Assembly (NCBI GenBank): GCA_949300375.1
Contig: CASGEB010000004.1
Coordinates: 101 to 64,100 of the forward strand
Source of the DNA: an uncultured Pseudomonadota bacterium
GTDB lineage: Bacteria > Pseudomonadota > Alphaproteobacteria > RF32 > CAG-239
Length of the DNA stretch: 64,000 nucleotides
Direction of reading: 5' to 3'
Shown piece by piece: positions 13,294 to 40,399 of the stretch (positions within the stretch are counted from its first letter, which is position 1; each line of letters starts with the position of its first letter). The translations under genes were made by a program, and so were the position numbers. Below the pieces are notes generated by a model that saw only the letters and a program-made list of their open reading frames with translations, made no database searches and had not been told where the DNA came from.

Positions 13294-13968
13294 ATGATGA
13301 AAAAGTATTTTTTGTCGCCGCTTTTTATGCCGGTGTTTATATTGCTTTTATGGTTGCTTATACAAGATTTCGTTTGGGCTTTTTTTCCGGATTCCTTGCC
13401 GGCAATTGCGCAGGATGGCGGTTTGATTGAGCATTGCACGCATTCCTTATATGTGTTGATGCTGCTTTCATTTATTTTATGCTATAAAGATTTTTCCCGC
13501 AACCGGAGCGATTATTTCGCTTTTGTCTTTTTAGGAATTTGCGCCTTTTTAAGAGAGGCGGGAATACAGCATCACTTAACCAGCCATGACACGACGCCGT
13601 TTAAGTCGCGTTTCTTCACCAATCCCGCCAATCCTTTGGAAGAAAAAATCCTTTTTGGGTTTGTTTTATTGGTCATCTTTGGAATAATCGCCTGGCTGGC
13701 CGTAAAATATGCCCGTTTTCTGGTAAATTCCTTTTTGAAGTTTCGGTTAATCGGCTGGTCTGCCGCCGTTTTGTGCACAATGCTGGTTCTTTCCAAATTT
13801 GTAGACCGTTTCCCGGCAAATTTCCGGCACTATACCGGAGAATATTTAAATCCGGAAATAAGAAACAACCTGATGCTGATTGAAGAAACCGGTGAAATGC
13901 TGCTGCCGCTGATTGCCACAATTTTTCTGCTGCAGTATCATCTGTTGCAAAAGCAGCGTAAGGATTAG
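13294..13968 (+). CDS. hypothetical polytopic membrane protein
   Basis: 224 aa with about 6 hydrophobic helices. Confidence 0.5.
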   Translation: MMKKYFLSPLFMPVFILLLWLLIQDFVWAFFPDSLPAIAQDGGLIEHCTHSLYVLMLLSFILCYKDFSRNRSDYFAFVFLGICAFLREAGIQHHLTSHDTTPFKSRFFTNPANPLEEKILFGFVLLVIFGIIAWLAVKYARFLVNSFLKFRLIGWSAAVLCTMLVLSKFVDRFPANFRHYTGEYLNPEIRNNLMLIEETGEMLLPLIATIFLLQYHLLQKQRKD

Positions 13969-15908
13969 TCCCGCCCGCTGCTGCGGGAAAGGTCAATCCC
14001 TTTTTTCCTCATATCCTTCAGCAGCATATCAAAATCTCGGCGCAGCGGATCTGTAGCTTCCAGCTCTTTGCGGTAACGGGCGCCGATATCGCTGGAAGCT
14101 TCTTTATATTGGGTGAGGTTTTGCAGCGCTTTCATGCAGTTTCCTGAAGCAATGCCGGCAATTCTTTCAAGCTTTTGTTGCTCAATATCGTCAAAAGTGG
14201 AAGATTTAAAATCTTCGCTGTAAGAACTGTCTGGGTCAGAGAAAATAAACTTTGCCTGCAAACGGTTTTTCTCGGCAATTTTTCTGTATTTTTCCATCAG
14301 CCCGAACATATTTCTGTTTTGTCTGCCCGCAATATTTTGATAAGCTTGTCGTATTGTCGGGGCGTGAAAAACTTGCGTAAGATAAAAATGATCAAATTCC
14401 GCTGCCGGGAACTCTGCCGCCGGACTGTCGGTCAATTCGTTAAACTTCAAAATTTCATAACATAGCGGGGTTTTATAAAAGCCGCATTGTTCTTCAAAAC
14501 TCATATCATTAAGATACCGCTGAGCCTTTTGGTCTGCCCAGTTGATAAAATCAATTTCTTGCGGTGCAATGCCGATCTCTCTATCCGCCATTTTGTCTTC
14601 AAATTTCCGGTTAAATCCGTTCAGCAGCTTCTGCAGCGCCTCGCCCGGAACATATTTGCTGTTCTCAATCTCATCAACCAACGACTGCGTTTCAGCTTGA
14701 ACTTTGGGACATTTTCCTCTGCTTTGCTGCATATTTTTTTGCAACCGTCGTAAAATAACAATATTGCTCTCTGAAATTTCCTTTTTATCTCTGCTTTTAT
14801 AAGTAATAACCTTGTCATAACTTTGAAGCTCGAGTGCGGCGTTGCTTTTTCCCAGAGCTTTGATAATTTTATCTGTCGGTGCATTGCCGCGGTTGTCATA
14901 AAAAGCAACCATTTGGTCGATAATTTCATTAACGCCGCGGATTTCATCATGAATCAAATCCCGCAGTCCGCCGTATGTACGGCTCAGGGCAATGCCGTCC
15001 TGCCGGTTGCTTTGAAAAATATCAAAATCCGTAGCCGGAAGCTCTCTGGCGATTGTTCGCAGTTCGTGAATATTTCCCGGTGTAACTCGGCTGGTATAAG
15101 CCTGATAAGTATAATCTCCGATTCCGTAGGTATGGTTTTGCGTCCCGTACATATTGGTCTGTTTGCAAAACAGCGAGTCCGGATTGGCGAGCGCTTCCGG
15201 CAGCACATTATGCACCAGTCCGTGATAAGTTGTTTCGCTCAAACGCTGTGAGCGGTCGGAATAAATTGTATAAAAGGCGGAGTTAAGCGTTTTTAACAAA
15301 GGGGTGTCAACCTTGTGCGCCAACATTTCCTGCAGATATTTTAGCTGCATGGCTTTAAAATTGCGGCTGTTTTCATAATCCACGCTATAAACGTTTCTTA
15401 AAAGGGGGGAGATTTCCTCGGCGTCATCATCCCGATTGGCAAATTTATTCAGAATGGATAAGGCATTTTCAAAAACTATCTCCGGTTTTTCGGGACATAA
15501 AAAATCGGCACATTTGGAAACGCCGGGCAAAATTTCGCCGGACAAGTCTCTGTAACTTTCGTCAAAATGATATTTTTGCTGCAATTCTCTGTAAATTTTT
15601 GAATATGTCAGACAACGGCTGATTAGTTCTTTATCATCTGAGTTGATTAAGGCCAGATAAGTGTTGCAGCCGCCAAAAGTACAAATATCTCTGTTGGAAA
15701 TTGGCTCTTTTCTAAAGAAATCTTCAAACCCCAGATTATAAAGAATTTTCGCAGTTTTTTCCGAAAACAGGGCGCATTCGGTTTTTTCTTCATATCCAAA
15801 GGAATCCGGATTTATGTCAGAATAAAAATAGTTTCGGGCAATATGGCGGACAATCTCATCCATCCCGTTATTCTGCCAGTTTTGTAAAGCTTCTTGTCGC
15901 GAAATCAT
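13965..15908 (-). CDS. hypothetical 647-aa protein
   Basis: Long ORF with no recognised motif. Confidence 0.6.
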   Translation of the reverse strand: MISRQEALQNWQNNGMDEIVRHIARNYFYSDINPDSFGYEEKTECALFSEKTAKILYNLGFEDFFRKEPISNRDICTFGGCNTYLALINSDDKELISRCLTYSKIYRELQQKYHFDESYRDLSGEILPGVSKCADFLCPEKPEIVFENALSILNKFANRDDDAEEISPLLRNVYSVDYENSRNFKAMQLKYLQEMLAHKVDTPLLKTLNSAFYTIYSDRSQRLSETTYHGLVHNVLPEALANPDSLFCKQTNMYGTQNHTYGIGDYTYQAYTSRVTPGNIHELRTIARELPATDFDIFQSNRQDGIALSRTYGGLRDLIHDEIRGVNEIIDQMVAFYDNRGNAPTDKIIKALGKSNAALELQSYDKVITYKSRDKKEISESNIVILRRLQKNMQQSRGKCPKVQAETQSLVDEIENSKYVPGEALQKLLNGFNRKFEDKMADREIGIAPQEIDFINWADQKAQRYLNDMSFEEQCGFYKTPLCYEILKFNELTDSPAAEFPAAEFDHFYLTQVFHAPTIRQAYQNIAGRQNRNMFGLMEKYRKIAEKNRLQAKFIFSDPDSSYSEDFKSSTFDDIEQQKLERIAGIASGNCMKALQNLTQYKEASSDIGARYRKELEATDPLRRDFDMLLKDMRKKGIDLSRSSGRD

Positions 15909-18186: not shown

Positions 18187-19719
18187 GTGAACGGGTGTAA
18201 GGATATAGGCCTGTATTGGCAGCCTCTCGGCGGCAATAATGTTGACCAGATAAGCGGCCATTGCTACAGATATATTGATTGCACCCGTTCTGCATCCGGA
18301 TTGCGGACTTGCAGCATTCTTGTCGATGTCGGAAAATACGATAACTATTCGGCTCTCGGCGTTCCCTGTGCCGATACGGCCGTTCCGGATATCCGCGGAT
18401 TTTTGCCGCCTTCTTCTCAGGCGGTTTCCGCAGTTTTTATCACGCATTCCCATCCCGATCATTTAAATGGTCTGGCGCATTATCTGAAACTCGGCTATTG
18501 TTTTCCGCCGGTTTATATGAGCCGTTATACCCGGATGATTTTTGAAGACCTGCTGAAAGATTTTGGAATACCTTCTTCGGCCTGTCCGCCGATTGTGGAG
18601 ATTCGTCCGCGCGATGTTATAACAATCGGCAGTATGACAATCGAAGCCGTTGCGGCCTCGCATACTTGTTTTGATTCTCTCGGCTTTATCATAAAATCAA
18701 CAAACGGAACGGTTTATCATACCGGAGATTTCAAAGCCGACGACAGCATTTATTTCCGCCGCCCGACGGATTTTTCTCGTTTGGCGGAGTTGTCTGGAAA
18801 AGTTGATTGTATGGTTGCCGATTGCTGCCGCCTGATGGATGACGGTCTTGCCCCGAAAGAGAGCGATACTTTCAAGAAAATGGTAGAGCTGGTGTGCAAA
18901 AGCGGCAAGTCTAAAATATTTATTCCGGTCTATCCGACCCATCCCGAAATGTATGTCATAGCATTTCTGGCGGCCTTAAAGCTCAAAAAGAATGTTGTCT
19001 TTTACGGCACGCGCGATTTTTATATCTACCTCAATCTGATGATAGAATACGGTCTGGATTTTAGAAAGCTGGCAAAAAAACGGATAAAAGTTATTTATCA
19101 TCCTGATTTCGGCTTGGAAGAATTGGGCGACAATTATGTGGTTATCGGAACATATAACCATATCGGGCGTGAGTTTTCCATCTGCCGGAAAGACAGCTTT
19201 GCCGTTATCACGGCCAGAACGTTTTTCAACCCGTTGCGCGGACAATTAAACCTGCATGGCATCAAATTCGCCAGCGTCATTGAGGAGCCGCTTTTGCAGG
19301 GTTACGGCCACGGTTTTCTCGGCGATATCGTAAAAATGAGCAATATTTTGCAGGCGCCGCTGTTAATTCCAACCCACTGTCCGGCCTATGTAACGGATTA
19401 TTTTCGGGAACTGGCGCCGCTGCTGGGTATAAAACTGATAAGCCGGACGCCGTTAAACGGCAATATTTTCAAAATTTCAAACCGGGAATGTGTAAAAATC
19501 GCCGACAGCGTTGCGAAATGGCTGGTCGTTAGTTATGATAACCCCGCCCGAAAATTGACCGAAGTTGCGCAAAAACCGACGTCCGGCCTGGGATTTTTAA
19601 AAAGAACCATCAGCCGGAAACGATGCCAAAGGAAGTTCAAAATAATTCGGCACCGGTTGGAGAAGGAAATCTGTAATGCTGAAAAAACTCAAAAAAGACT
19701 ATCTGATTCGCAGCTATGA
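18187..19719 (+). CDS. metallo-beta-lactamase fold hydrolase, divergent RNase J-like
   Basis: HSHPDH (HxHxDH) motif. N-terminal PLGG...ILVDVG and the length are consistent with the RNase J architecture. GTG start. Confidence 0.55.
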   Translation: MNGCKDIGLYWQPLGGNNVDQISGHCYRYIDCTRSASGLRTCSILVDVGKYDNYSALGVPCADTAVPDIRGFLPPSSQAVSAVFITHSHPDHLNGLAHYLKLGYCFPPVYMSRYTRMIFEDLLKDFGIPSSACPPIVEIRPRDVITIGSMTIEAVAASHTCFDSLGFIIKSTNGTVYHTGDFKADDSIYFRRPTDFSRLAELSGKVDCMVADCCRLMDDGLAPKESDTFKKMVELVCKSGKSKIFIPVYPTHPEMYVIAFLAALKLKKNVVFYGTRDFYIYLNLMIEYGLDFRKLAKKRIKVIYHPDFGLEELGDNYVVIGTYNHIGREFSICRKDSFAVITARTFFNPLRGQLNLHGIKFASVIEEPLLQGYGHGFLGDIVKMSNILQAPLLIPTHCPAYVTDYFRELAPLLGIKLISRTPLNGNIFKISNRECVKIADSVAKWLVVSYDNPARKLTEVAQKPTSGLGFLKRTISRKRCQRKFKIIRHRLEKEICNAEKTQKRLSDSQL

Positions 19720-20407
19720 ATGTGATAAAAACGGCGAGCTGCGCTTAATCACGTTAATGAATATTTTTCAGGACATTGCCGACAATCATATTGCAGATAT
19801 GGGACTCGGACTGGATTACTGCCGGGAACAGGGACTTGCCTGGGTTGGGACGAATTATCATATTCACATCGGCCGCCTGCCGAAATTTCATGAAAAAATC
19901 ACGGTTCTGACCTGGCCGTCGGCAGAAAAGAAACTGGGGAAAATACGGGATTTTATTGTGGCTGACAGCCGCGGAGAAAATATCATAACGGCTTCCAGCC
20001 AGTGGCTTCTGATAGATTTTCACAAAAAACGCCCGCTTGTTTCCCGGGAAGGGCTGCCGGCATATCAGGTTATTCCCGAACGGGCGCTGCAGACTGATTT
20101 CCCGAAAATAGCCGATGTTTTGCGTGTTGATTGCCGGATGGAGTTCAACGTCCGCTTTGACGATATCGATTTCAACAAGCATGTGAACAATGCCGTCTAT
20201 CCGTTATGGGCGGCAGAGGCCGTCGGAACGGGTTTTCGCACCGCCCACACGCCGGAAGAAATTGAAATTGCATTTGAAAAAGAGTGCCGCTTGGGAGAAA
20301 AGGTTATTGTCGAAACCGAACGCGACAGACAGATATCGCTGCACCGCATTTGCTCCCTGAATGACGGGCGCGAACTGGCTCGTGTAAAGATTGCTTGGAA
20401 AATGTAA
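19676..20407 (+). CDS. acyl-ACP thioesterase family protein
   Basis: Double hot-dog pattern: YLIRSYECD...LAWVGTNYHI... and FNKHVNNAVY. Confidence 0.75.
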   Translation: MLKKLKKDYLIRSYECDKNGELRLITLMNIFQDIADNHIADMGLGLDYCREQGLAWVGTNYHIHIGRLPKFHEKITVLTWPSAEKKLGKIRDFIVADSRGENIITASSQWLLIDFHKKRPLVSREGLPAYQVIPERALQTDFPKIADVLRVDCRMEFNVRFDDIDFNKHVNNAVYPLWAAEAVGTGFRTAHTPEEIEIAFEKECRLGEKVIVETERDRQISLHRICSLNDGRELARVKIAWKM

Positions 20408-20462: not shown

Positions 20463-21218
20463 ATGACGCCGCTTTTGGAAATTGAAGATTTGCACGCCCG
20501 CGTTGGCGATAAGGAAATTATTAAAGGCTTTAACCTGACGATAAATGAAGGCGAGGTTCACGCCGTTATGGGGCCGAACGGCGCCGGAAAATCCACCTTG
20601 TCTTATGTATTGACCGGCAAGCCCGGATATGAAATTACTTCCGGTTCCGTACGTTTTAAGGGAAAAGATTTAACTGCTATGTCAACGGAAGAGCGCGCCC
20701 GGGAAGGCATTTTTCTCTGTATGCAGTATCCGGTTGAGATTCCCGGTGTGCCGACCGCTACTTTTCTGAAACATGCCGTCAATGCCGTGCGCAAGCACCA
20801 AAATCTGCCGGAAATGGATACGTTTGAATTTTTAAAGCTGGTTCGGGAAGAAGGGCAAAAACTCGGAATTGGCAATGAGATGATAAAACGTCCGGTTAAC
20901 GTCGGTTTTTCCGGCGGAGAAAAGAAAAGGCTGGAAACGCTCCAAATGTCAATCTTAAAACCCGACTTGTCGATTCTGGATGAGGCCGATTCCGGATTGG
21001 ATATTGATGCGCTGAAAGTCGTTGCCGGCGGGGTCAACGCTCTGCGTGACGGCAAACGTTCAATGCTGGTTATTACCCATTATCAGCGCCTGCTGAACTA
21101 TATTGTTCCGGATTATGTCCATATTTTTGCCGACGGACGCATCGTTAAATCTGGTGATAAAAATCTGGCGCTGGAGCTGGAAGAAAAGGGCTATGCCGAT
21201 TTTGTGAGAGAAAAATAA
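20463..21218 (+). CDS. sufC: Fe-S cluster assembly ATPase SufC
   Basis: Walker A GPNGAGKST, signature FSGGEKKR, Walker B ILDEADSGLD. Confidence 0.95.
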   Translation: MTPLLEIEDLHARVGDKEIIKGFNLTINEGEVHAVMGPNGAGKSTLSYVLTGKPGYEITSGSVRFKGKDLTAMSTEERAREGIFLCMQYPVEIPGVPTATFLKHAVNAVRKHQNLPEMDTFEFLKLVREEGQKLGIGNEMIKRPVNVGFSGGEKKRLETLQMSILKPDLSILDEADSGLDIDALKVVAGGVNALRDGKRSMLVITHYQRLLNYIVPDYVHIFADGRIVKSGDKNLALELEEKGYADFVREK

Positions 21219-22501
21219 TGCCGGGATTGCTGCAAGATAAAAAACTTTTCGGGGAAGATATCCCCTGGCTTTGCGCTCTGCGTGAAAAAGGCGCCGAGAT
21301 TTTCCGGCGCTTGGGCGTCCCGGGCGCAAAAGTGGAAGACTGGAAATATACCAAGCCCCGGATTTTGAACGCGGACGACTTTGTTTTGCCTGAAATGCCG
21401 GCCGCGCATGAATGTTCCTGCGGCTGCCGGCATCATGACGGAGAAGACTGCTGCTGCAAACAAAACTTGCCTTTTGAGGCTTATCAGATTCGTTTTGAAA
21501 ACGGCTTTTGGCAGCATGAACACAATCATTTGCCGGAAGGCGTTACGGTTTTGCCGCTGGATGAAGCAATTGCCGATAATGAAATCTGCCGCCGCTGGCT
21601 GGGAAAAATCGCCGATATGGAAAACGCGCCTTTTGCCGCTTTGAATACGGCTTATTTGGAAAACGGCGTCTTTGTCTGTGTTGAGCGCGGTGTAAAGCTG
21701 GACAAGCCTCTGGCCATAATCAGCCATACCTGCGCCGGAGAGGGCAATCTGTTTTATAACCTGCGCAATCTGATTGTTTTGGAAAACGGTGCTGAGGCGG
21801 AAATTGTCGAATATTTCCGTTATTCCGGCATTGAAAAATCCCGTTATTTTACCAATATCGTAAATGAGATTATGGTCGGCAAGAACGCTCAGCTGCGGCA
21901 TTATAAGCTGCAGGACGAGGCTTTTAAGGCCGCGCATGTGTCTTTGTCTGCCGTTCAGGTCAAAGCCGGCGGAAAGTATCATCATTTCTGCCTGCAAAAA
22001 GGAGCCGATTTGGGACGGGACGAAGTCCGGGTAAAATTATTGGATAAAGGGGCGGAAACCAGCGTCGACGCCGCTTACAAAATGTCAGGCTGGGCAACGC
22101 TGGATACAACGACGCTGATTGAGCATATTTCCCCGGAAACATATTCAGAACAATTGGTAAAAGGCGTTGTGGACGGTGAGGCAAAAGGCGTATTCCAAGG
22201 CAAAATCCACATTGCGCCGAACGCGGTTCATACGGAAGGAAGACAGCTGCATAAGGCGCTGTTGCTGTCGGATACGGCGGAAATCGACTGTAAGCCGGAG
22301 CTTGAAATTTTTGCCGATGATGTGAAATGTTCGCACGGTGCAGCCAGCGGAGAACTGGATGAAGAGCAGTTGTTTTATATGCGCTCCCGCGGAATAGACG
22401 AGGATGAAGCCCGACGGATTTTGGTTGAGGCTTTTCTTGACGACGTTTTGTTGAAAGTAGATTCGGAATCTGTCCGCAGCTGGCTGAAAGCTATGCTCTG
22501 A
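21218..22501 (+). CDS. sufD: Fe-S cluster assembly protein SufD with a Cys/His-rich N-terminal insert
   Basis: C-terminal beta-helix pattern (...CSHGAASGELDEEQLFYMRSRGI...). Start overlaps the sufC stop. Confidence 0.9.
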   Translation: MPGLLQDKKLFGEDIPWLCALREKGAEIFRRLGVPGAKVEDWKYTKPRILNADDFVLPEMPAAHECSCGCRHHDGEDCCCKQNLPFEAYQIRFENGFWQHEHNHLPEGVTVLPLDEAIADNEICRRWLGKIADMENAPFAALNTAYLENGVFVCVERGVKLDKPLAIISHTCAGEGNLFYNLRNLIVLENGAEAEIVEYFRYSGIEKSRYFTNIVNEIMVGKNAQLRHYKLQDEAFKAAHVSLSAVQVKAGGKYHHFCLQKGADLGRDEVRVKLLDKGAETSVDAAYKMSGWATLDTTTLIEHISPETYSEQLVKGVVDGEAKGVFQGKIHIAPNAVHTEGRQLHKALLLSDTAEIDCKPELEIFADDVKCSHGAASGELDEEQLFYMRSRGIDEDEARRILVEAFLDDVLLKVDSESVRSWLKAML

Positions 22502-22523: not shown

Positions 22524-23738
22524 ATGTACGATGTATATAAAATTCGTCGGGATTTTCCGGTATTGGCACAAAAAATAAACGGCAAACCGAATACTTTTCT
22601 CGATTCCGCGGCTTCGGCGCAAAAGCCCCAGTGTGTCATTGATACCATAACCCGCCTTTATTCGACTTGCTATGCCAATGTCCACCGCGGCGCTTATTAT
22701 CTGTCCGAGCATATGACGCAGGAATATGAAAACGCCCGTAAAATTGTGCAAAAGTTTATTAATGCCGCTGACAGCCGGGAAATTATTTTTACCCGCAACG
22801 CCACGGAATCAGTCAATTTGGTTGCCGCCTGCTGGGGACGGAAATTCTTAAAACCGGGAGATGAAATCTTAATCTCCCAGGCCGAACATCACGCCAATCT
22901 GATACCGTGGCAAATGGTTGCGGCCGAAACCGGCGCCGTCTTGAAAGTTTTTAAAATCGGTGATGACGGCAGTTATCTGGAAGAAGAATATTTAAAGCTG
23001 CTCGGCCCGCAAACCAAAATAGTTGCCGTAACCGCAATGTCCAACGTGCTGGGAACGGTTTTCCCGGTGAAAAAAATGGCGGAGCAGGCGCATAAAGCCG
23101 GTGCCGTAATTCTGGTTGATGCTTGCCAGGCTGTTGTCCATCAGGCATTGGATGTTCAGACGGCGGATTGCGATTTTCTTGCTTTTTCCGGACACAAAAC
23201 TTACGGTCCCAGCGGCATAGGCGTTTTGTACGGCAAATATAAACTGCTCGATTCGATGCCGCCTTATCAGTTCGGCGGCGATATGGTTGAAGAAGTAACT
23301 TATGAAAAAACAACCTTTGACGAAGTTCCCGCCCGTTTTGAGGCAGGAACGCCTGCAATGGTGCAAGCCATCGGCCTGGGGCGCGCTTTGCAGTATATGG
23401 CAGATTTGGGAATGGAAAACATTACGGCGCACGAAACGGAACTGACGGCTTATGCTCACAGCCGTTTTGGGGAAATCGGCGGATTTAAGGAAATCGGCAC
23501 GGCAGAAGGCAAGGGCGGTGTTTTTTCTTTTGTTTTGGAAGGGATTCATCCGCAGGATGTTGCCTTTATTCTGGATAAGGAAGGCGTATCTGTCCGCACC
23601 GGACACCATTGCGCCCAGCCGCTGGTGGAAAGGATGGGATACACGTCGCTGGCTCGTGCTTCTTTGGGACTTTATTCCACCAGGGAAGACATTGATATTT
23701 TTATCAACGCTTTGCAAAAAGCAAAGACTTTCTTTTAA
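22524..23738 (+). CDS. sufS: cysteine desulfurase SufS
   Basis: FSGHKTYGPSGIG (PLP lysine) and RTGHHCAQP (catalytic Cys loop). Confidence 0.95.
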   Translation: MYDVYKIRRDFPVLAQKINGKPNTFLDSAASAQKPQCVIDTITRLYSTCYANVHRGAYYLSEHMTQEYENARKIVQKFINAADSREIIFTRNATESVNLVAACWGRKFLKPGDEILISQAEHHANLIPWQMVAAETGAVLKVFKIGDDGSYLEEEYLKLLGPQTKIVAVTAMSNVLGTVFPVKKMAEQAHKAGAVILVDACQAVVHQALDVQTADCDFLAFSGHKTYGPSGIGVLYGKYKLLDSMPPYQFGGDMVEEVTYEKTTFDEVPARFEAGTPAMVQAIGLGRALQYMADLGMENITAHETELTAYAHSRFGEIGGFKEIGTAEGKGGVFSFVLEGIHPQDVAFILDKEGVSVRTGHHCAQPLVERMGYTSLARASLGLYSTREDIDIFINALQKAKTFF

Positions 23739-23818: not shown

Positions 23819-24253
23819 ATGTCTGAAGAAAAAGAAAACGCCCTGACGGCGGAAGATGCGGAAAAACAGCTGTTGGCCGCAATGGCGGAACAGATGAAAC
23901 TTCTTGATTTTGTGGCAAAAGCCGGAAATCCGCTGCCTGAAGGGGAAAAGCCTGCCTCTCGCGAAGATGTTGTCGCAGCGTTAAAAACCGTTTCCGATCC
24001 GGAAATTATGATAAACGTCTGGGATATGGGACTGATTTACAATATTGATATCAGAGAAAACGGCAATGTTTTTATTGAAATGACGGTAACCGCGCCGACT
24101 TGTCCGGTCGCCGGCGTTTTGCCGGAACAGGCGGCGGAAGCTGTTGCCGCAGTCAAAGGTGTCGGAGAAGTCGAGGTCAAGTTGGTTTGGGAACCGGCTT
24201 GGACTTTTGAACGGATGAGCGACGAAGCGAAGATGATGTTTGAAATGTTTTAG
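23819..24253 (+). CDS. sufT: SufT-like DUF59 Fe-S assembly protein
   Basis: Start moved to the ATG after AAGGGATAAG. DPEIMINVWDMGLIY...MTVTAPTCP is the DUF59 signature. Confidence 0.8.
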   Translation: MSEEKENALTAEDAEKQLLAAMAEQMKLLDFVAKAGNPLPEGEKPASREDVVAALKTVSDPEIMINVWDMGLIYNIDIRENGNVFIEMTVTAPTCPVAGVLPEQAAEAVAAVKGVGEVEVKLVWEPAWTFERMSDEAKMMFEMF

Positions 24254-24261: not shown

Positions 24262-25125
24262 ATGGCAGAAAAGGTTTTATATCTAAAAGAACCTGAAGCA
24301 GGCAGCGTTTACTATCTTCTTTCTCCGCAAAAAGTAGACCGGGCGCTGGCGGAAAACGAAACCTTTTGCATCCGTCTGCCGCACAGCCCAAGAGATAAAG
24401 ATAAGCCTTTGGTTGCCGTGATTCTCGGATTGGAAAAAAACGACTACGCCATTGATAAAAATTACGTTAAAGCCCTGCTTGCCGCCGGTGCCGACCTGAC
24501 GTTTATCCATTATGAAGATGTCGATTCCCAGCTGGAATATTTAAAACCTGATGCTTTCCTGCTGCCGGGCGGATGTTTTGACTCTCCCGCCGAATTTTAT
24601 CGGGAACCGGAACGCCTGCCGCCGGAACACAGCCTCAGCCCGCGCTCATTGGCTTATATTTATGCCATTGATTATGCCAATGAAAACCAAACGCCGGTAT
24701 TGGGAATTTGCGCCGGATTTCAGATGCTTGCCGGAATGGCCGGCGCCAAAATGTATGCCTGTCTGAAAGATGAGCTGCCGGGCGCGCTGCCGCATAAAGA
24801 ACCAAAAGACAAAATAGCCCACGATGTTGCCGTTGTTCCGGACAGCCGGCTGCATAAATTGGCGGGAACGGAAAAGCTGAGCGTCAATTCTGTGCATAGC
24901 GAAGGCGTTATTAACGATTCGTCGGCGCTGGAAGGGCTGCGGATTGTTGCGGTTTCTCCCGATAATCTGGCCGAGGCGGTTGAAGCCCCAGGCGGACGTT
25001 TTGTTCTCGGCGTACAGTGGCATCCAGAATATTTGTATCAAAAAGATAAAGCCGCCGCCGCATTATTTGAAGAATTAGTAAAAGCGGCCAAAGATTATAA
25101 AGAGAAAAAAGATGACAATAGATGA
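24262..25125 (+). CDS. class I glutamine amidotransferase / gamma-glutamyl hydrolase (peptidase C26-like)
   Basis: GICAGFQML (nucleophile Cys) and GVQWHPEY (His/Glu). Confidence 0.75.
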   Translation: MAEKVLYLKEPEAGSVYYLLSPQKVDRALAENETFCIRLPHSPRDKDKPLVAVILGLEKNDYAIDKNYVKALLAAGADLTFIHYEDVDSQLEYLKPDAFLLPGGCFDSPAEFYREPERLPPEHSLSPRSLAYIYAIDYANENQTPVLGICAGFQMLAGMAGAKMYACLKDELPGALPHKEPKDKIAHDVAVVPDSRLHKLAGTEKLSVNSVHSEGVINDSSALEGLRIVAVSPDNLAEAVEAPGGRFVLGVQWHPEYLYQKDKAAAALFEELVKAAKDYKEKKDDNR

Positions 25126-25522
25126 GTTGATTGAAAATTTTGATTTGTTGGACGATTGGGAAGATAAATACCGCTATATCATTGATCTGGGCTCCCGGAT
25201 GAAGCCACTGCCGGAAAATCTGAAGACCGATGACTGGAAAGTCCACGGTTGTCAGTCGCAGGTTTGGCTGGTGCCGTCGGTTACGATGGAAAACGGGCAG
25301 AAGTATCTGGACTTCCAGGGCGACAGCGATGCGGCGATTGTAAGGGGAATTGTGGCGATAATCCTGATAATTTTTGCACATAAAACGCCGCGGGAAATTA
25401 AAGAAATTGCAGTTGAAAATATTTTTGCTAAACTGGGATTGCAAGACCATCTGAGTCCCAGCCGCCGCAACGGCCTGGCTTCAATGGCCGAAAAAATCCG
25501 CTGGTATGCCGCGACATTATAA
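25112..25522 (+). CDS. sufE: cysteine desulfuration protein SufE
   Basis: DWEDKYRYIIDLG...VHGCQSQVWL motif. Confidence 0.9.
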   Translation: MTIDELIENFDLLDDWEDKYRYIIDLGSRMKPLPENLKTDDWKVHGCQSQVWLVPSVTMENGQKYLDFQGDSDAAIVRGIVAIILIIFAHKTPREIKEIAVENIFAKLGLQDHLSPSRRNGLASMAEKIRWYAATL

Positions 25523-25531: not shown

Positions 25532-26734
25532 ATGAACATTCACGAGTATCAGGCCAAAAAAATCTTAAACCAGTACGGGATAAATATTCCGAAAGGAGGA
25601 ATAGCCTATACGCCGTCGGAAGCCAGAAACGTGGCCGCCAAAGTCTCGTTTCGCGGGCCGTGGATGCTCAAATCCCAAATCCAGTCCGGCGCGCGCAACC
25701 GGGGGCATTTTCTTGAGAAAAAAGCCGGCAGGGGCGGCGGGATAAGGCTGATAAAACATCGGCGCGAAATTGCCCGTGAAGCGGAAAAAATGCTTGGTTC
25801 CACGCTGGTTACCGAACAAACCGGGCCGAAAGGAAAATTGGTCAGCCGCCTGTATGTTGAAGCCTATTGCAAAGTCAGCCGCATTTTTTATGCCGGGTTG
25901 GTCATTGACCGGATGATTCCTGCGGTAACGCTGCTGATTGCCGAGGTTAGTCCGGAAAATATAACCGGAGTGGCGCTTGAACATCCTGAAAAAATCTTAA
26001 AAATTCAGCTTGATTTGGATAAAGGGGCTTCTCCGTCCCAAATTCATAAGGTGATGTCTTTTCTGAACCTGAAACCCCGCAGCGCCCGTAGTTTGGAAAC
26101 ATTTATCAACGGGATGCACAAAGCTTTTAAGGATTATGACGCGACAATGATTGAGGTAACGCCGGTTGGCGTTTTGCGCAGCGGCGAGCTGATTGCTTTG
26201 GACGCCAAAATGTCTTTTGATAAAAACGGCCTTTACCGCCATCCGGAAATCCGCCGGTTGGAAGATGAGTATGAAGAAGACGATTATGAAATCCAGGCCA
26301 AAAAATTCGGATTTAATTATAGTGAGTTTGACGGCAATATCGGCTGCATTGTCAACGGCGACGGTATTGCGCTGGCCGCTATGGATTTGTTGCGCTCCAA
26401 GGGGTTCGGAACGGCTTGCTTTTTGAACGTCAAAGGCGGCGTCGATAAAGAAAAAATCGCTTCCGGCATAAAAATAATTATGACCAATCCGCGCGTTGAG
26501 GGAATATTGATTAACATTCTCGGCGGTTTTCTGCGGTGCAACCTGATTGCCGAGGGGATTATTTCTGCCGCGCATGATGTCGGGCTGAATGTGCCGCTGG
26601 TTGTCCGTTTTGAAGGGACGAACAAAGACGAGGCCAAAGAGATTCTGGAGCATTCAAAATTGCCGCTGGTAATTGCCAATGATATGCAGGAAGCGGTAGA
26701 TACGCTGATAAAAGCCGTAGAGGAGAGCGATTAA
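25532..26734 (+). CDS. sucC: succinyl-CoA synthetase beta-subunit homologue, motifs degenerate
   Basis: MNIHEYQAKK..., DAKMSFD and NIGCIVNGDGIALAAMD are present. The canonical FLDVGGGA is FLNVKGGV and NIFGGIxRCD is NILGGFLRCN. Confidence 0.75.
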   Translation: MNIHEYQAKKILNQYGINIPKGGIAYTPSEARNVAAKVSFRGPWMLKSQIQSGARNRGHFLEKKAGRGGGIRLIKHRREIAREAEKMLGSTLVTEQTGPKGKLVSRLYVEAYCKVSRIFYAGLVIDRMIPAVTLLIAEVSPENITGVALEHPEKILKIQLDLDKGASPSQIHKVMSFLNLKPRSARSLETFINGMHKAFKDYDATMIEVTPVGVLRSGELIALDAKMSFDKNGLYRHPEIRRLEDEYEEDDYEIQAKKFGFNYSEFDGNIGCIVNGDGIALAAMDLLRSKGFGTACFLNVKGGVDKEKIASGIKIIMTNPRVEGILINILGGFLRCNLIAEGIISAAHDVGLNVPLVVRFEGTNKDEAKEILEHSKLPLVIANDMQEAVDTLIKAVEESD

Positions 26735-27622
26735 ATGTCGATTTTGGTTGATAAAAATTCCCGGGTTCTTTGTCAGGGCATTACTGGTACTCAGGCAACT
26801 TTCCATATCCGGCGTTCGTTGGATTACGGAACAAACGTTGTCGCCGGCGTAACCCCCGGAAAAGGCGGAAACACCCACCTGGGTCTGCCGGTTTTTAATA
26901 CGGTAAAAGAGGCTGTGGCTGAAACCGGTGTAAACTCAAGCGTTATGTATGTTCCTGCCCGTTCGGTCAAAGATGCCGTGCGGGAGGCGGCGGAAGCTGA
27001 ATTGGAACTGGTTGTCTGCATTGCCGACGGTGTTCCGATCCGCGATATGATAGAGATAAAAAATATCTTAAAAGGCAGCCGGACGAAGCTAATCGGCCCG
27101 AACACGCCGGGCATCATCACGCCGGGAGCCGCAAGACTGGGAATTTTTCCGGAAAACATTCATCGTCCCGGCCGTATCGGCATTGTATCGCGCTCATCGA
27201 CCCTGACTTATGAGGCCGTGGTAGAAACCAAACGCGCCGGTATGGGACAGTCAACGGTTATCGGTTTGGGCGATGATATGATATTTGGTATAGACTTTGT
27301 TGATGTTTTGGAACGTTTTATGGCTGATGATGAAACGGATGCCGTGGTGATGATTGGAGCTTTGGGCGGAACGTTTGAAGAAAACGCCGCGGAATATTAT
27401 CGGTCTTTAAAACACAAAAAGCCGATTATCGGCTTTGTGGCAGGAGAAGCTGTGCCTTTCGGGCATAAAATGGGATATGCCGGCGATATCATTACCAAAG
27501 GGCGCATTTCAGTTCAGGACAAAAAAGATGCCATGAATGCGGCCGGAATAACGGTTGTCAATCATATTAACGCCATTCATGAAAAATTGTCGGAATTGGC
27601 AGGAACTGCGGCTTTAAAATGA
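26735..27622 (+). CDS. sucD: succinyl-CoA synthetase alpha-subunit homologue lacking the catalytic histidine
   Basis: CQGITGTQATFH, GVTPGKGG and SRSSTLTYE are present. The canonical MGHAGAI is KMGYAGDI (TAT codon at 27476-27478). Confidence 0.75.
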   Translation: MSILVDKNSRVLCQGITGTQATFHIRRSLDYGTNVVAGVTPGKGGNTHLGLPVFNTVKEAVAETGVNSSVMYVPARSVKDAVREAAEAELELVVCIADGVPIRDMIEIKNILKGSRTKLIGPNTPGIITPGAARLGIFPENIHRPGRIGIVSRSSTLTYEAVVETKRAGMGQSTVIGLGDDMIFGIDFVDVLERFMADDETDAVVMIGALGGTFEENAAEYYRSLKHKKPIIGFVAGEAVPFGHKMGYAGDIITKGRISVQDKKDAMNAAGITVVNHINAIHEKLSELAGTAALK

Positions 27623-28335
27623 ATATTTGGCAGAAAATTTTAAATTCCGTTTTACCGCCGCGTTGTATCTTGTGTGGAAAGATATTAAATGAAGAAGAGG
27701 GGCTGTGTCCGGAGTGTTTTAATGAAATAAACTTTATTTCCCGGCCTTACTGTGCCAGATGCGGCCGCCCGTTTGCCGAGGCGCCGTCTGATGGAAAGCT
27801 GCTTTGCCCGTCCTGTGTAAAAGGCGATGGAATGCCCTTTCGTATGTGCCGGTCGGCTTTTCATTATGACGATGCTTCCAAGAATCTGATATTGGGGCTC
27901 AAGTTTATGGACAAGACGGAAAACGCCGGCGTTTTGGCGCGTTTTTTGTTTCAGGCCGGACGCGATATTTGGACGGCTGGGGCAGATTTGTTGCTTCCTG
28001 TTCCGCTGCATTACACCCGGTTAATAAAACGCCGTTACAATCAGTCGGCTTTTTTGGCCGGAGAACTGGAAAAACTGGTGCTGGTGCCGGTTGATTACAA
28101 TTCTGTCGTCAGACACAAAAAGACCCGCCCGCAGGTTGAATTTTCCGGGCATGAGCGGGTCAAAAACGTCAAGGGGGCATTTTGTGTCCGCCATCCGGAA
28201 CAAATACGCGGTAAAAAGATTGTCCTGATTGACGATGTAATGACAACCGGTTCGACGCTAAAGGAATGTGCGCTGGTTTTGCAAAAATCCGGAGCTTCTT
28301 CGGTTGATGCCCTAACGGTAGCAAGGGTTTGTTAG
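27619..28335 (+). CDS. comF: ComF family phosphoribosyltransferase-domain protein
   Basis: N-terminal CxxC...CxxC zinc ribbon pairs and the PRT motif IVLIDDVMTTGSTL. Confidence 0.8.
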   Translation: MNIWQKILNSVLPPRCILCGKILNEEEGLCPECFNEINFISRPYCARCGRPFAEAPSDGKLLCPSCVKGDGMPFRMCRSAFHYDDASKNLILGLKFMDKTENAGVLARFLFQAGRDIWTAGADLLLPVPLHYTRLIKRRYNQSAFLAGELEKLVLVPVDYNSVVRHKKTRPQVEFSGHERVKNVKGAFCVRHPEQIRGKKIVLIDDVMTTGSTLKECALVLQKSGASSVDALTVARVC

Positions 28336-30849: not shown

Positions 30850-32712
30850 TTATTTAGAAAGCTCCTGCTTTTTGGCAAACATTTTTTGCAGCAACTTCTG
30901 TTTATTGTTGCGGAAGCTCTCTTTAGGAAACTCAATTGGCTCTTTTTCCGCATTATTCAACTGCGATTTTGCCAATTTTTGCATTAATTTATCATCTAAA
31001 TACTCATAAGGAGAATGGGGTTTTGCCAAAGTAAGATTCTTATTGTTAAGGTAAGCCTCAACGCCTTTGGACAAATTGATTTTAACCCAGTTTTTTCCGT
31101 AGGCAAGCGCGAGCCCGTCGTTTGAGAGTCGGGCCACGGGGCGTATTTTGCCTTCTTCATTTTTGACCATATATTCCATACCGTCATTTTCATACACAAT
31201 ATATTTGCTGTTCTTGTCGGCAGAATATTTGATCTTATCCGCCTGAAATAAAGGCGTTTCCATTTTGGTATCAGAAGCTTCATAAACGCTGAATTTTTCT
31301 TCACCGTCCTTTTTGGCTGCAAAAAAATCTTGAGCAACAGCGGCAACTTCTTTAAGCCCGTTTATTTGAGAGCCGTCTCTCAAGTCCACAACACGATTCT
31401 GTTTTTCAAACTGCCCAAAATTTGAGATTGTGTTTGTTACATTTACCAGAGCGTTGCAGGTAACCCCGCTAATATACCCCCGGCCATAATCATTATTGAA
31501 ATCTAATATTTTAATATTTTTTTCGTTATCAACAAAGCACCCTGTAAACGCCTCTGTCCCTGAATTATAAAAGGTTCCGTATCTTGTTTTCTCTTCTGGT
31601 TGATATTTTAAATATTTTTCAAACCATTCTTCATTAGACATTTTAGAACTGGACAATTCCGTAATACCGTCTTTAGTAACGGAATATGTGTCTACCGTAC
31701 CATATTTGAGTCTTTCTATAAGAAGATTTTTTCCATCCGTTTGAATGATGTCCCGTTCATTAATATAACCAATGTCTGTTTTCTTTCCGGAACGGGTATC
31801 TTCTGCCCAGACAAAAGAATAGTAGTATCCATCACTATCCTTGTCATTCAGCTCTTGGCAATAAACCTCATAATTGCCGAATTTAACAGCGGGAATATCA
31901 TCATTATAATATTCGTCATCGTTTTCTTCTTCATATTCATAAAGAGGTTCGTTTTGTTCTCCCATATAGCGTAGTTTATTATTTTCGAATTTATAATATT
32001 CGGTTATTTCTTGAGAAGCACCTTCAAGCCCTTCATCCATATCATAGCTGGAAGACAGAACTTTTTCTCTATCGTCATACGAAATAGACGGATAGCGGCC
32101 ATATTTTTTATCAAAGGTCATCAGCAAGTCAAGACCATCGTCTTTAGCCTGATAAATACCGATTAAATTTTTATCTTCCCCGCCGCTGACTTCTAAAAGG
32201 CCGTCCTGAAACAAATATACAGAATGACTGGAATCGAATTTCTTAACGGTTTTCAATTCTCTGTTTTTATCCAGTTTCATAATAAATGTTGATGAATTTT
32301 TATTTCTCATTACAAAAACACCATCTGCATAATAAATAGAATTTCTATCCCCGAAATTAGCCCAGTATCGTCTGGATGTTGCTAATACCTTAGGCGATTC
32401 TTTGCTGGTATCAACATATTGCTTTATTGTAGAATCTTTTGTTTGCACAGCTACAGTAGCAATTTTGTTTATATTATCTTTTCGCAAAACAATACCTTGG
32501 TATTTTTTACCTCTTTTAGAAACAAGATCAATAGTTTCAACAGGTTCATCTGCATAATATATGCCTTGTTTGTTCTTCTTTTTATTTTCATCTCTCAGCT
32601 GTTTGCTTTTTAGATAGTGTTCCACTTCCGATGTGCTGGCTCCGAATGTCTGTTCTGAGTTTCCTTCTTGTTCCAATTTGCTGTCAATTTCTGACTGAGA
32701 CAATTTTGACAT
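30850..32712 (-). CDS. hypothetical 620-aa acidic, beta-rich protein
   Basis: Start moved to the ATG preceded by GAGGAG (the track starts at an upstream TTG). No recognised domain. Confidence 0.6.
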   Translation of the reverse strand: MSKLSQSEIDSKLEQEGNSEQTFGASTSEVEHYLKSKQLRDENKKKNKQGIYYADEPVETIDLVSKRGKKYQGIVLRKDNINKIATVAVQTKDSTIKQYVDTSKESPKVLATSRRYWANFGDRNSIYYADGVFVMRNKNSSTFIMKLDKNRELKTVKKFDSSHSVYLFQDGLLEVSGGEDKNLIGIYQAKDDGLDLLMTFDKKYGRYPSISYDDREKVLSSSYDMDEGLEGASQEITEYYKFENNKLRYMGEQNEPLYEYEEENDDEYYNDDIPAVKFGNYEVYCQELNDKDSDGYYYSFVWAEDTRSGKKTDIGYINERDIIQTDGKNLLIERLKYGTVDTYSVTKDGITELSSSKMSNEEWFEKYLKYQPEEKTRYGTFYNSGTEAFTGCFVDNEKNIKILDFNNDYGRGYISGVTCNALVNVTNTISNFGQFEKQNRVVDLRDGSQINGLKEVAAVAQDFFAAKKDGEEKFSVYEASDTKMETPLFQADKIKYSADKNSKYIVYENDGMEYMVKNEEGKIRPVARLSNDGLALAYGKNWVKINLSKGVEAYLNNKNLTLAKPHSPYEYLDDKLMQKLAKSQLNNAEKEPIEFPKESFRNNKQKLLQKMFAKKQELSK

Positions 32713-32740
32713 CTTCGTTCTCCTCTTCAATAATCAAAAA

Positions 32741-35556: not shown

Positions 35557-35592
35557 GAAGAGCCGTCATTTTTGGCGGCTCTTTCTTTTTTA
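35557..35592. terminator. bidirectional terminator
   Basis: AGAGCCG-tcatttttgg-CGGCTCT followed by a T-rich run. Confidence 0.6.
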
Positions 35593-36879
35593 TAAAGATA
35601 CCCGGTTCAGTACGGCTTCGGCAAAAACTTTCAACGGGTTCGACAAAACGGCCGGTCTGAGGTTTTGCGGCTCAAGTTCCATATAGCAGGCAAGTTTTAC
35701 AAATTCTTCAAAATCCAAAGCATATTTGGGCGTCATCAGCTGAAACATATTCAGGGTATCCGGCCGGATGCTTTTGTTTATATGAATACCGTTGGCGCTG
35801 ATTGCCGTCGGGATACCGGCGCTTAAGGTCTCGCAGCAGGAAAAACTGTCGACGGTATGAACGGCCAGAGTATTGTCAAAACCTAAAACAGCCGGATAAA
35901 TATTGCCGATTTGCCGGTGTGCGGAAAATTCGGATTCAAATTTCCCGGAGTATATACGCCATTTTGCCCTTTCTGCGTCCGTTTGGGCAATGTGCTTGCA
36001 ATTATGAAAAATGATATCTGGGTGCAGTTTGGCTTTTTCATACAGATAGTCTGTAACATCGTTAGGCGTGCGCGGCCCGTTGACAATTATAATGCCGTAT
36101 TGATGGCGCGCGAGAGAAACGCAGTGTTCAAACAAAGTTTGCGCGTAATTAACATCAAAAATAATCTCGCTCCCTTCGGTGCGTCCACCCAGACAGATAA
36201 CGGCTTTTTTCTTTTTCTTTAATATGTTTTGCAACTTACATATGTGAGCCGCGGCATTATCCGCCCTCGAAGAACGGGAAAGTATGTCCTCAAGTTCTTT
36301 TTTCTTTTTCGCCACATTTTCTTTGCTGAAAGAATGAATAATGCCGATGGTGATTAAGACTTTCTTGCGCAGTTTTTTATTTTGCAGCAGCCGGACGCGT
36401 ATGGGAAAACTCAGCATATGCTTGGGAACGTTAATAAAATCAATATACTTATAATTATGCAGTTTGCTGCTCAAAACAACGGTTAAAATATTTCCCAGTT
36501 GATGCAGTTTATAATATTCTTTTACAATACGGCATATTGTATCGGCATTAATGTTTGGAAAAGGGCTTTCAGTAAGATTATAGGGCGTCAGAAAAACGCG
36601 GGGAACCGGTTGCATATGTTCAAACCGGTCGTCTAATATGGAAAATATTTGTGCGCGGAACTTTTTATAGCTGTTGAAATTGGAATAACATAGGGATTTT
36701 GGCAAATCTTTGGCATCGTCAATGCCTTGCGGCAGCAGCAAACATTTGTCGGCGGGACAATCTGAACCGGCTTTTTGATGAATGGCGTTAATTGCCCCGA
36801 TTAATTGGTTGCGATACCCGGTATAGGAAGTGTCAAATGCAAAAGCGATGATATCGGACTTTGCCCTTTGGGTCATCAT
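35590..36879 (-). CDS. ELM1/DUF1022-like putative glycosyltransferase-fold protein
   Basis: N-terminal FDTSYTGYRNQLIGAINA, central VICLGGRTEGS...IIVNGPRTP and C-terminal VHTVDSFSCCETLSAGIP resemble the ELM1 family pattern as I remember it. Confidence 0.35.
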   Translation of the reverse strand: MMTQRAKSDIIAFAFDTSYTGYRNQLIGAINAIHQKAGSDCPADKCLLLPQGIDDAKDLPKSLCYSNFNSYKKFRAQIFSILDDRFEHMQPVPRVFLTPYNLTESPFPNINADTICRIVKEYYKLHQLGNILTVVLSSKLHNYKYIDFINVPKHMLSFPIRVRLLQNKKLRKKVLITIGIIHSFSKENVAKKKKELEDILSRSSRADNAAAHICKLQNILKKKKKAVICLGGRTEGSEIIFDVNYAQTLFEHCVSLARHQYGIIIVNGPRTPNDVTDYLYEKAKLHPDIIFHNCKHIAQTDAERAKWRIYSGKFESEFSAHRQIGNIYPAVLGFDNTLAVHTVDSFSCCETLSAGIPTAISANGIHINKSIRPDTLNMFQLMTPKYALDFEEFVKLACYMELEPQNLRPAVLSNPLKVFAEAVLNRVSL

Positions 36880-38841: not shown

Positions 38842-39450
38842 TTACAATAGTTTATGAATGTCATATTCGTCATAGCCTTCATAATAATAACTGACATTAA
38901 TGCCTTTCATAAAGATTTCCCGTTCATCAATTTTATCTGTTAGGGCATTTTTTAAGAGATGTTTTATTTCAATATCTTTAACAGGGCTTCTTTCCATTGC
39001 TGATAAATAGTCTTCTTTATCGATTTTATTCCAATCAACAACTTGTTTAATTTCTTTTTTTAATATTAAATCCAGCCAAATCCTTGTTGCGCGGCCGTTT
39101 CCTTCTTGGAAAGGGTGGGCAATATTCATTTCAACATATTTTTCAACAATTTCATCAAAGGTTGACTGAGGCATTTTATCTATATGTTTTAGGGCTTGTG
39201 CCAAATACATCACCGGAGCAAATCTGAAGTTTCCTTTTGATATGTTGACGTCGCGCATTTTTCCTGCAAAATCATAAATATCTTCAAACAAATACTTATG
39301 AATCTGTTTTAATCCGGCAAACGTCCCGGCCTTTATCTGATTGATTTTACCACTGTCAAAAAGCTTTTTGGCCTTTTCTTTGCTAAGCTTTTCTTCAATC
39401 TTATTCAATTCAATTTGATTGGTAATATTCAATTTATTTTCTAAAACCAT
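38842..39450 (-). CDS. fic: Fic family protein (AMPylase-type), class III with C-terminal inhibitory motif
   Basis: Canonical [12 protein letters not shown] (HxFx[D/E]GNGRxxR). C-terminal SYYYEG fits the inhibitory (S/T)xxxE(G/N) motif. Confidence 0.85.
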
Positions 39451-39796: not shown

Positions 39797-40228
39797 TCAG
39801 TAAAAACCACAGTCACTACAGGAACTAACAGGACAGACGCAAAGGCAAGGGGATATAATCTCAGAAATGTGTGAAGATAAGAACAAAAGAAATAACATAA
39901 AAATAATTACGCAAATACGTTTGGCAATAATATACTCTCTTTTGTCTGTTCTTTTTTTGGAAAATTTTAAAACCAATAAAACAAGTAAAGAAACGGAAAA
40001 CAAGCCCAAAAGTAATACATACCAAAACTCATAACTGGAAAAACATATTATATAATATGAGAGATACTTTTGCGAAAGAGCAAAAATCAAAAAGGTTACG
40101 CAAATACGTTTGACAATAATATACACTTTCCCGCCCATTCTTTTTTTTGAAAAGTTTAAAACTGGCAATGCAGCAAAAGAAACTAAAAGAAATCCTAAAT
40201 AAAATCCTGAAAATAAAATATCAGTCAT
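39797..40228 (-). CDS. hypothetical membrane protein with internal tandem duplication
   Basis: LNFSKKRMGGKVYIIVKRICV... is repeated as LKFSKKRTDKREYIIAKRICV.... The DNA repeat TTACGCAAATACGTTTG.CAATAATATAC is seen at about 39910 and 40096. Confidence 0.45.
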   Translation of the reverse strand: MTDILFSGFYLGFLLVSFAALPVLNFSKKRMGGKVYIIVKRICVTFLIFALSQKYLSYYIICFSSYEFWYVLLLGLFSVSLLVLLVLKFSKKRTDKREYIIAKRICVIIFMLFLLFLSSHISEIISPCLCVCPVSSCSDCGFY

Positions 40229-40340
40229 CCTACACTCACTTCCGCCATATAAAATAATACAAATATACTGCCCCTATCTATTGAAAAGTCAAGTTAAAAT
40301 ATCAATATTTAACACCTTTGAGCTGCTCAAATTTTTTCAG

Positions 40341-40385: not shown

Positions 40386-40399
40386 TTAGCGTTCGCTCT

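Follow-up and report, generated by a model that had tools for sequence, protein, structure and literature searches.

A conserved clade of SucCD-like heterodimers lacking the catalytic histidine is encoded beside sufE in uncultured Alphaproteobacteria

Succinyl-CoA synthetase (SCS) is a heterodimer of SucC (beta) and SucD (alpha), whose site I, at the interface between the subunits, joins succinyl-phosphate to the thiol of coenzyme A (CoA). Catalysis depends on phosphorylation of His246-alpha, and the phospho-histidine is stabilised at the two active sites by Glu208-alpha and Glu197-beta; these sites lie a long way from each other, and the phosphorylated histidine on its swinging loop is their only means of communication (PMC10342173). 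The SucCD paralogues with altered substrate specificity, namely the malate-CoA ligase MtkAB, citryl-CoA synthetase and ATP-citrate lyase, all retain this residue. By contrast, the synthetase-like domain of the Pat/PatZ acetyltransferases lacks it, is inactive as a ligase, and binds and senses acetyl-CoA (PMC8556138). This work concerns a pair of adjacent genes encoding SucC- and SucD-like proteins without the catalytic histidine, found in a 64,000-nucleotide stretch of an uncultured alphaproteobacterial genome (positions 101 to 64,100 of contig CASGEB010000004.1, assembly GCA_949300375.1; hereafter the window). The favoured interpretation, to which a probability of roughly 0.6 is attached, places the pair in a conserved clade of heterodimers that descend from SucCD, occur in uncultured Alphaproteobacteria, mostly from the gut, and have been repurposed as phospho-enzyme-free, nucleotide- and ligand-binding complexes acting with SufE and the SUF system in sulfur mobilisation.

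The likeness to SucCD of Escherichia coli (PDB 1JKJ and 2SCU) extends to the two-gene architecture, the domains, the full-length alignment, the ATP-grasp core and the Rossmann motif. Both open reading frames (ORFs) are intact and on the same strand and, as stated in a preliminary description of the locus, they are full length and tightly coupled, the TAA stop codon of beta (26732-26734) directly abutting the ATG of alpha at 26735. Over full-length alignments, alpha and beta are 52% and 37% identical to their E. coli counterparts, and alpha matches E. coli SucD from end to end (E = 1e-94, phmmer against the PDB); given 52% identity to a solved SucD, the predicted fold of alpha is not in doubt. 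Both proteins pass the curated cutoffs of the NCBIfam equivalogs NF001913 and NF004230 (397 against 370 bits for beta, 377 against 336 for alpha), with a margin that is small overall, as beta falls just under the cutoff of TIGR01016 (374.1 against 375.55 bits). Canonical alpha subunits score 463-467 bits, compared with approximately 377 for the subfamily to which the window's alpha belongs, and divergent members of the clade fail the cutoffs (alpha 293-324 bits, beta 356-367). Annotation pipelines name these proteins SucC and SucD, and in public metagenome-assembled genomes (MAGs) the window's subfamily carries the name "succinate--CoA ligase".

Other members of the superfamily are more remote. 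MtkAB, citryl-CoA synthetase and ATP-citrate lyase are detectable homologues, but unlike the pair they keep the histidine, and beta reaches 362 bits against the MtkA model NF010647 (cutoff 604), while Citrate_synth_N scores 25 bits (cutoff 83). The type I and II protein acetyltransferases Pat, PatZ and PatA share with the pair their superfamily, the lack of a catalytic histidine and the retention of the domain under selection, and the His-less Pat/PatZ domain appears to be the closest precedent. However, the direct match is weak (PDB 9isq and 9it0, E ~8e-5), and those proteins are single-chain ACD-type domains fused to GNAT, whereas the pair is a stand-alone SucC/SucD-type heterodimer without GNAT, far closer to true SCS and linked to sufE. 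FdrA (PDB 3DMY), a SucD-like protein of unknown function, belongs to the same superfamily, but the match is weak (E ~1e-3) and the relationship very remote (27.6 bits, with the cutoff at 433), and its architecture is different.

The pair departs from SucCD in the loss of His246 and Glu208, in a rebuilt site I, and in its position after sufE instead of with genes of the tricarboxylic acid (TCA) cycle. Residues are numbered here as in E. coli unless window numbering is indicated, and the canonical reference set comprises 80 alpha and 67 beta sequences from named genomes. The replacement of the catalytic histidine by tyrosine, on which the preliminary description centred, is upheld by the phmmer alignment to PDB sequences (Table 1): position 246 is Tyr in all 123 members of the window's subfamily, and His in all 80 canonical sequences. 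The position of Glu208-alpha is similarly altered, being Glu in 80/80 canonical sequences, but Ala in the window, Gln, Arg, Ala or His in its subfamily, and Gly in the sister subfamily introduced below. Across the clade, the hinge glycines of the swinging loop, G253 and G256, are exchanged for Lys, Asn or Gln and for Ile or Val. With His246, Glu208 and the hinge glycines all gone, the phospho-histidine relay is, as judged from these sequences, dismantled, and it is very likely that the whole clade functions without a phospho-enzyme relay. Because the active sites of SCS communicate only through the phospho-histidine, here replaced by Tyr, Leu or Phe, the complex would be unable to carry phosphate between its two sites, and would not be a working succinyl-CoA synthetase; the textbook SCS reaction is very probably not what the pair carries out.

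These changes are accompanied by others throughout both subunits. Relative to E. coli, the alpha substitutions are G20A, C123T, G154S, G179D, E208A, A249D, G253K and G256I, and the altered motifs previously listed are all present (GPNCPG to GPNTPG, SRSGTLTYE to SRSSTLTYE, GIGGDP to GLGDDM, and GEIGG to GALGG), with the Ala of GALGG being particular to the window's lineage. The clade-specific substitutions in beta are G53A, E107I, A266D, N285C, D288N, G290K, I322F and D326N, and the motif changes from FLDVGGGA to FLNVKGGV, and from NIFGGIVRCD to NILGGFLRCN, are likewise as first reported. Across the clade, G290 is replaced by Lys or Arg and E107 by Ile or Val; G53 is fixed as Ala, and is Ser in both of the sister-subfamily beta subunits examined (n=2). 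The altered alpha and beta positions are 95-100% invariant in the canonical set, and hence the changes go far beyond chance. The exception is the insertion in the GGRGK region of beta, which had been counted as a further sign of degeneracy: a loop of 21-23 residues, the same length, occurs there in 5 of the 67 canonical beta subunits, with a His-bearing alpha partner (e.g. HAGGRGKGKFKELAKDAKGGVRL), and this part of the claim does not stand.

For the ATP and CoA sites, the roles assigned to residues follow UniProt/HAMAP annotation and the E. coli and pig SCS structures. The ATP-grasp core is present in the window's beta subunit (K47, R55, E110, E208 and D224 in window numbering), and K46, R54, E99, E197, N199 and D213 are at least 98% conserved in the beta subunits of the clade. 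Glu197-beta, the partner of the phospho-histidine at the nucleotide site, is Glu in 123/123 clade members and in the beta subunits of the Leu-type complexes. The substitution of Thr for the Mg ligand Asn199 is limited to the window's own species, and the ATP-site invariants that have become variable in the clade are G55, E107, G129, G130 and E134. In alpha, the Rossmann GxxGxxA motif is invariant in the clade, SRSxTLTYE and GQST are retained from SucCD, and the CoA-binding motifs GxxGxxG, PGKGG, ITEG and NCPG have window equivalents (GITGTQA, PGKGG, IADG and NTPG) that are largely preserved. The PGKGG loop, which contacts the 3'-phosphate of CoA, is kept in the window's subfamily, but reads PNKxE/D in the sister subfamily, and is lost too in the divergent members P0317 and P0322.

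At site I, by contrast, canonical invariants have been replaced with new ones: T123, S154, D179 and D/E249 in alpha, and D266, C285, N288, K/R290, F322 and N326 in beta. In the clade, Asp replaces Ala at position 266 of beta, the N-terminus of the helix to which the phosphoryl group normally binds. Replacement of this kind points to a function under new constraint instead of relaxation. As the new site I invariants are polar and the ATP-grasp core is retained, a ligand-binding or catalytic function is favoured over a purely structural relic. Hence the complex is predicted still to bind nucleotide and, in its rebuilt pocket, a ligand that is CoA-like or of another kind.

The conservation of these features at the level of a family, and the invariant linkage to sufE, are the main findings, and go beyond the preliminary description. 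The best database matches, 120 clusters for each subunit, establish an alpha family of at least 120 clusters (73-95% identical), all with T123, S154, D179, H242, K243, Y246 and D249, and a beta family of at least 120 clusters (71-98% identical) that have G53A, A266D, FLNVKGG and NILGGFLRCN in common. An exhaustive search of 1.84 billion representative proteins recovered the divergent members P0317 (61% identical) and P0322 (52%), which keep T123, S154, D179, Y246 and D249, but not His242, while a metagenome scan added 23 further loci, many in human-gut assemblies, with the signature in all of them. The signature persists down to approximately 50% identity, and in the metagenome scan there was a sharp break without intermediates, alpha subunits at least 56% identical to the query being of the clade type, and those at 53% or less being canonical. 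In a search of genome contigs, one clade member (L001) was among the matches listed, which were dominated by canonical SucD of other taxa. Comparison with the 95% identical relative L094 gave ratios of non-synonymous to synonymous substitution (dN/dS) of 0.023 for alpha and 0.034 for beta, and relatives at 83-85% identity (L095 and L096) gave 0.05-0.08; with dS near saturation, these ratios are, if anything, overestimates. Few genes at the locus are as well conserved as alpha and beta. Hence this is almost certainly a real, conserved family, rather than a product of decay.

The clade also contains a second, sister subfamily. The alpha subunit of locus L155 has Phe at position 246, and a search seeded by this protein retrieved 120 clusters that retain the signature A20/T123/S154/D179/(D/E)249, in which residue 246 is Leu (84), Ile (17), Val (9), Phe (5), Met (2), Tyr (2) or Ser (1). 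Their beta subunits possess the same ATP-grasp core and new site I residues as those of the window's subfamily, and the order of genes at their loci is as in the window. Because this subfamily combines Leu, Ile, Val or Phe with the same rebuilt site, the only property that residue 246 keeps throughout the clade is hydrophobicity, which all but rules out a phospho-tyrosine carrier; a role for the tyrosine as a new catalytic residue is therefore not sustained.

Two candidate phosphoryl carriers were rejected on the basis of these alignments. The phospho-tyrosine fails because of the Phe in L155 and the Leu, Ile or Val in 110/120 sister-subfamily clusters. A shifted catalytic histidine could be sought at His242, in GHKMGY, which is invariant in the window's subfamily, but divergent members have Tyr, Asp, Lys or Ala instead, and the alignment with E. 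coli SucD puts Tyr, not a histidine, at the catalytic position.

A neighbour-joining tree without support values recovers the clade as monophyletic, with a long stem, and places it outside the canonical alpha- and gammaproteobacterial SucD proteins; the stem could reflect acceleration instead of ancient paralogy. Its members derive from MAGs labelled "Alphaproteobacteria bacterium" or "Acetobacter sp.", from human-gut assemblies and from related low-GC alphaproteobacterial MAGs, with the record prefix XIEF21 presumably denoting a ruminant-gut MAG study; they may belong to the GTDB order RF32. Complete or near-complete MAGs with the pair include GCA_964017975.1, GCA_023665325.1 and CALXZK01, and it is also present on the 2.0-Mb contig that holds MEI3549537.1. 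Some other SucD-like proteins also lack the catalytic histidine, namely P0413 (Phe), P0433 (Gln), P0428 (Tyr), P0418 (Asn) and P0373 (Tyr), and these fall outside the clade in the same tree and are without the T123/S154/D179 signature. Loss of the histidine thus seems, from these sequences, to have occurred several times in SucD-like lineages.

The second principal finding is the genomic context (Table 1). At all 38 clade loci with enough flanking sequence, representing approximately 17 lineages and both subfamilies, sufE lies immediately 5' of beta, with a spacing of about 30 nucleotides or less, or an overlap, and every SufE copy at these loci has an intact GCxS cysteine motif. The ComF gene is directly 3' of alpha in 42/44 clade loci. 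In both subfamilies, sufS and the sufT-like gene usually precede these genes, the common order being sufS, sufT-like, sufE, beta, alpha, comF; where sufS has been carried to the opposite strand by an inversion, sufE remains with beta and alpha. This arrangement has endured although the SufS proteins across the approximately 17 lineages are only 62% identical. As a control, 79 canonical sucCD loci (1.34 Mb) were inspected, and none of the 79 had a SufE, SufS, SufT, SufB, SufD or ComF homologue nearby. Conversely, neither TCA-cycle genes nor a second sucCD-like gene turned up in the 64-kb window and approximately 50 clade loci, a span that covers a few percent of a genome. It is this invariant coupling to sufE that motivates the commitment to a SUF-linked interpretation, in which the complex would be an accessory of SufE and SUF sulfur mobilisation: it might sense a metabolite and serve as regulator or adaptor, after the manner of the His-less synthetase-like domains of Pat acetyltransferases, or it might be an enzyme whose rebuilt site performs new chemistry. 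The functional link itself, being read from gene order, remains tentative, at a little short of an even chance.

Table 1. Coordinates of the gene pair, its neighbours and key codons in the window
Feature	Position	Strand	Details
sufC	20463-21218	+	upstream of the pair
sufD-like gene	21218-22501	+	upstream of the pair
sufS	22524-23738	+	upstream of the pair
DUF59/SufT-like gene	23819-24253	+	upstream of the pair
Peptidase_C26/glutamine-amidotransferase-like gene	24262-25125	+	between the sufT-like gene and sufE
sufE	25112-25522	+	136 residues; active-site motif GCQS; ends 9 nucleotides before the start of beta
SucC-like beta subunit	25532-26734	+	400 residues; ATP-grasp_2 and Ligase_CoA (Pfam)
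Codon of beta residue 210 (window numbering), the ATP-grasp Mg ligand Asn199, now Thr	26159-26161	+	Thr in the query and P0141 only; Asn in the other 121/123
TGC codon of the new invariant Cys at E. coli Asn285 (ACFLNVKGG), beside new Asn288 and Lys290	26417-26419	+	beta residue 296 (window numbering)
SucD-like alpha subunit	26735-27622	+	295 residues; CoA_binding and Ligase_CoA (Pfam)
ACG codon, Thr for Cys123-alpha (GPNTPG)	27104-27106	+	invariant across the clade
TAT codon, Tyr248 (window numbering) at the position of E. coli His246	27476-27478	+	phmmer alignment of MGHAGAII with MGYAGDII
ComF-family gene, double zinc ribbon and phosphoribosyltransferase domain	27619-28335	+	start overlaps the alpha stop codon (ATGA)

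Several explanations of the pair compete with this one. The preliminary description had left three options, a pseudoenzyme, an enzyme with changed chemistry, and a locus in early decay, and it is the last of these that can be discarded. Viewed as a single sequence, the many altered canonical motifs, together with the Thr at Asn199-beta in the window's species, might suggest decay, or an error in which CAT was read as TAT. However, the identical protein is present on four independent contigs, the critical codon is TAT in 8/8 relatives examined, and the family has hundreds of members, all full length; the substitutions are fixed, dN/dS is 0.02-0.08, and synteny is conserved down to approximately 50% identity. 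Hence early decay and sequencing error are excluded for practical purposes, whereas the pseudoenzyme and the changed chemistry both remain. It is, moreover, highly improbable that the pair is a working NDP-forming synthetase of succinyl-CoA or another acyl-CoA, with Tyr248 as the phosphoryl carrier. Such an enzyme would account for the retention of the ATP-grasp core and Glu197-beta, and for scores above the NCBIfam equivalog cutoffs, and the new Asp residues near the tyrosine could act as a general acid or base; yet the sister subfamily replaces the tyrosine with Leu, Ile, Val or Phe while leaving the rest of the signature intact, Glu208-alpha and the swinging-loop hinge glycines are lost, and an Asp occupies the place of Ala266 at the N-terminus of the phosphoryl-binding helix of beta.

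The remaining alternatives differ in how they account for sufE. The pair might have been repurposed as a ligand sensor or scaffold unrelated to SUF, with the adjacency to sufE being a gene order inherited within one lineage. Every member of the clade was recovered from related alphaproteobacterial MAGs of low GC content, housekeeping genes with nothing in common are often found together in operons, and the neighbours beyond the sufS to comF segment vary between lineages, but this explanation is unlikely in view of an adjacency that is seen at 38/38 loci, spans approximately 17 lineages with SufS proteins just 62% identical, and has survived inversions parting sufE from sufS. At the other extreme, sufE, beta and alpha, with or without comF, could constitute an ATP-grasp-driven module for sulfur transfer or thiolation, in which Cys285 of beta would take the persulfide from SufE and pass it to a CoA-like or nucleotide-like acceptor. 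The Cys, Lys, Asn and Asp that have become invariant at site I and the preserved ATP-grasp core, in both subfamilies, are in keeping with this, as are the constant proximity of a SufE with its cysteine motif intact, and the phosphoribosyltransferase-like ComF that comes next in 42/44 loci. Nevertheless, it is derived purely from residues and gene order, a precedent was not found in the literature and ComF is missing in L099, making so specific a proposal rather improbable. The broader idea of a sulfur-handling cassette derived from SCS, which would either receive the SufE persulfide or gate SUF sulfur flow according to acyl-CoA or ATP, is similarly long odds. The favoured interpretation, that of a repurposed, phospho-enzyme-free complex acting with SufE and SUF, must itself be weighed against several points. 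The link to SUF consists of conserved gene order, which could be synteny inherited within one bacterial order, and the tree is a simple neighbour-joining one. An enzyme that is still catalytically active would likewise explain why the ATP-grasp core and Glu197-beta have been retained. If these genomes are without a canonical sucCD, and yet need succinyl-CoA (e.g. for DapD), some SCS-like activity might be required. Finally, it is uncertain whether there is a common ligand, as PGKGG is kept in one subfamily and not in the other, nor in P0317 and P0322.

These results bear on how such genomes are annotated. Metabolic reconstructions of these Alphaproteobacteria from the human and ruminant gut will credit them with a step of the TCA cycle and of substrate-level phosphorylation that the pair almost certainly cannot perform, and the mis-annotation is systematic, as the scores of the clade straddle the curated cutoffs. 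For enzyme evolution, the clade represents the conversion of a core enzyme in which the relay has apparently been dismantled and one active site rebuilt, while half of the other active site is retained, making it a good system for studying the origin of pseudoenzymes or new enzymes. For iron-sulfur biology, the constant coupling to sufE suggests that SUF sulfur mobilisation in anaerobic gut bacteria has an accessory that had gone unrecognised. The novelty lies in a His-less, SucCD-derived and sufE-linked clade within a known superfamily: the literature searched held no description of it, nor of any His-less SucCD, SCS pseudoenzyme, link between SufE and SCS, or relevant metabolism of RF32/CAG-239-type gut Alphaproteobacteria.

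The cluster around the pair is compact, with sufC, sufD, sufS, the DUF59/SufT-like gene, the C26 amidotransferase-like gene, sufE, beta, alpha, comF and a spermidine-synthase-like gene following one another on the + strand with tiny gaps or overlaps. A scan of 16-31 kb for promoters and terminators returned counts at the level of shuffled sequence. The C26 gene is outside the conserved core, being confined to the window's near relatives (L081, L082, L085-L088, L094, L096 and L097), and is fast-evolving, at 53% identity where alpha is 83% identical. At the head of the suf cluster are genes for a metallo-beta-lactamase-fold protein (18187-19719, +) and an acyl-ACP thioesterase (19676-20407, +), while a SufB-like gene (3354-4802, -) is detached, approximately 16 kb from sufC-sufD-sufS and on the opposite strand. 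The same layout recurs in L096, with its detached sufB-like gene, and its metallo-beta-lactamase-fold and thioesterase genes at the head. Of the Tyr-type lineages L099 is the most divergent, and there the place of comF downstream of alpha is taken by a gene of the ADP-dependent phosphofructokinase/glucokinase family on the opposite strand (4264-5664, -).

Elsewhere in the window, the segment at 40000-47600 has a GC content of approximately 30%, compared with 42-49% in the rest, and lies beside a tRNA gene (46763-46834, -); it contains an AAA_14/DUF4143 ATPase gene (40770-42023) and several ORFs without a Pfam match, and looks like an acquired island. Three large ORFs had no Pfam match at E <= 1e-5: 4792-6618 (-, 608 residues), 13965-15908 (-, 647 residues) and 30850-32730 (-, 626 residues). 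A protein of 429 residues encoded at 35590-36879 (-) has a weak match to Mito_fiss_Elm1 (33.9 bits against a cutoff of 27). The gene at 2640-3311 (+) encodes a flavin-reductase-like domain fused to a C-terminal rubredoxin; such proteins are typical of anaerobes. A Fic-domain gene is located at 38842-39450 (-), with counterparts in the relatives L085 (2827-3435), L087 and L088, and ankyrin-repeat genes are found in L085 (1-1072) and L096 (18367-20043). Fic and ankyrin-repeat genes recur within approximately 10 kb of the locus in several relatives, hinting at a host-interacting lifestyle, and together with the flavin-reductase/rubredoxin fusion they fit anaerobic, host-associated bacteria.

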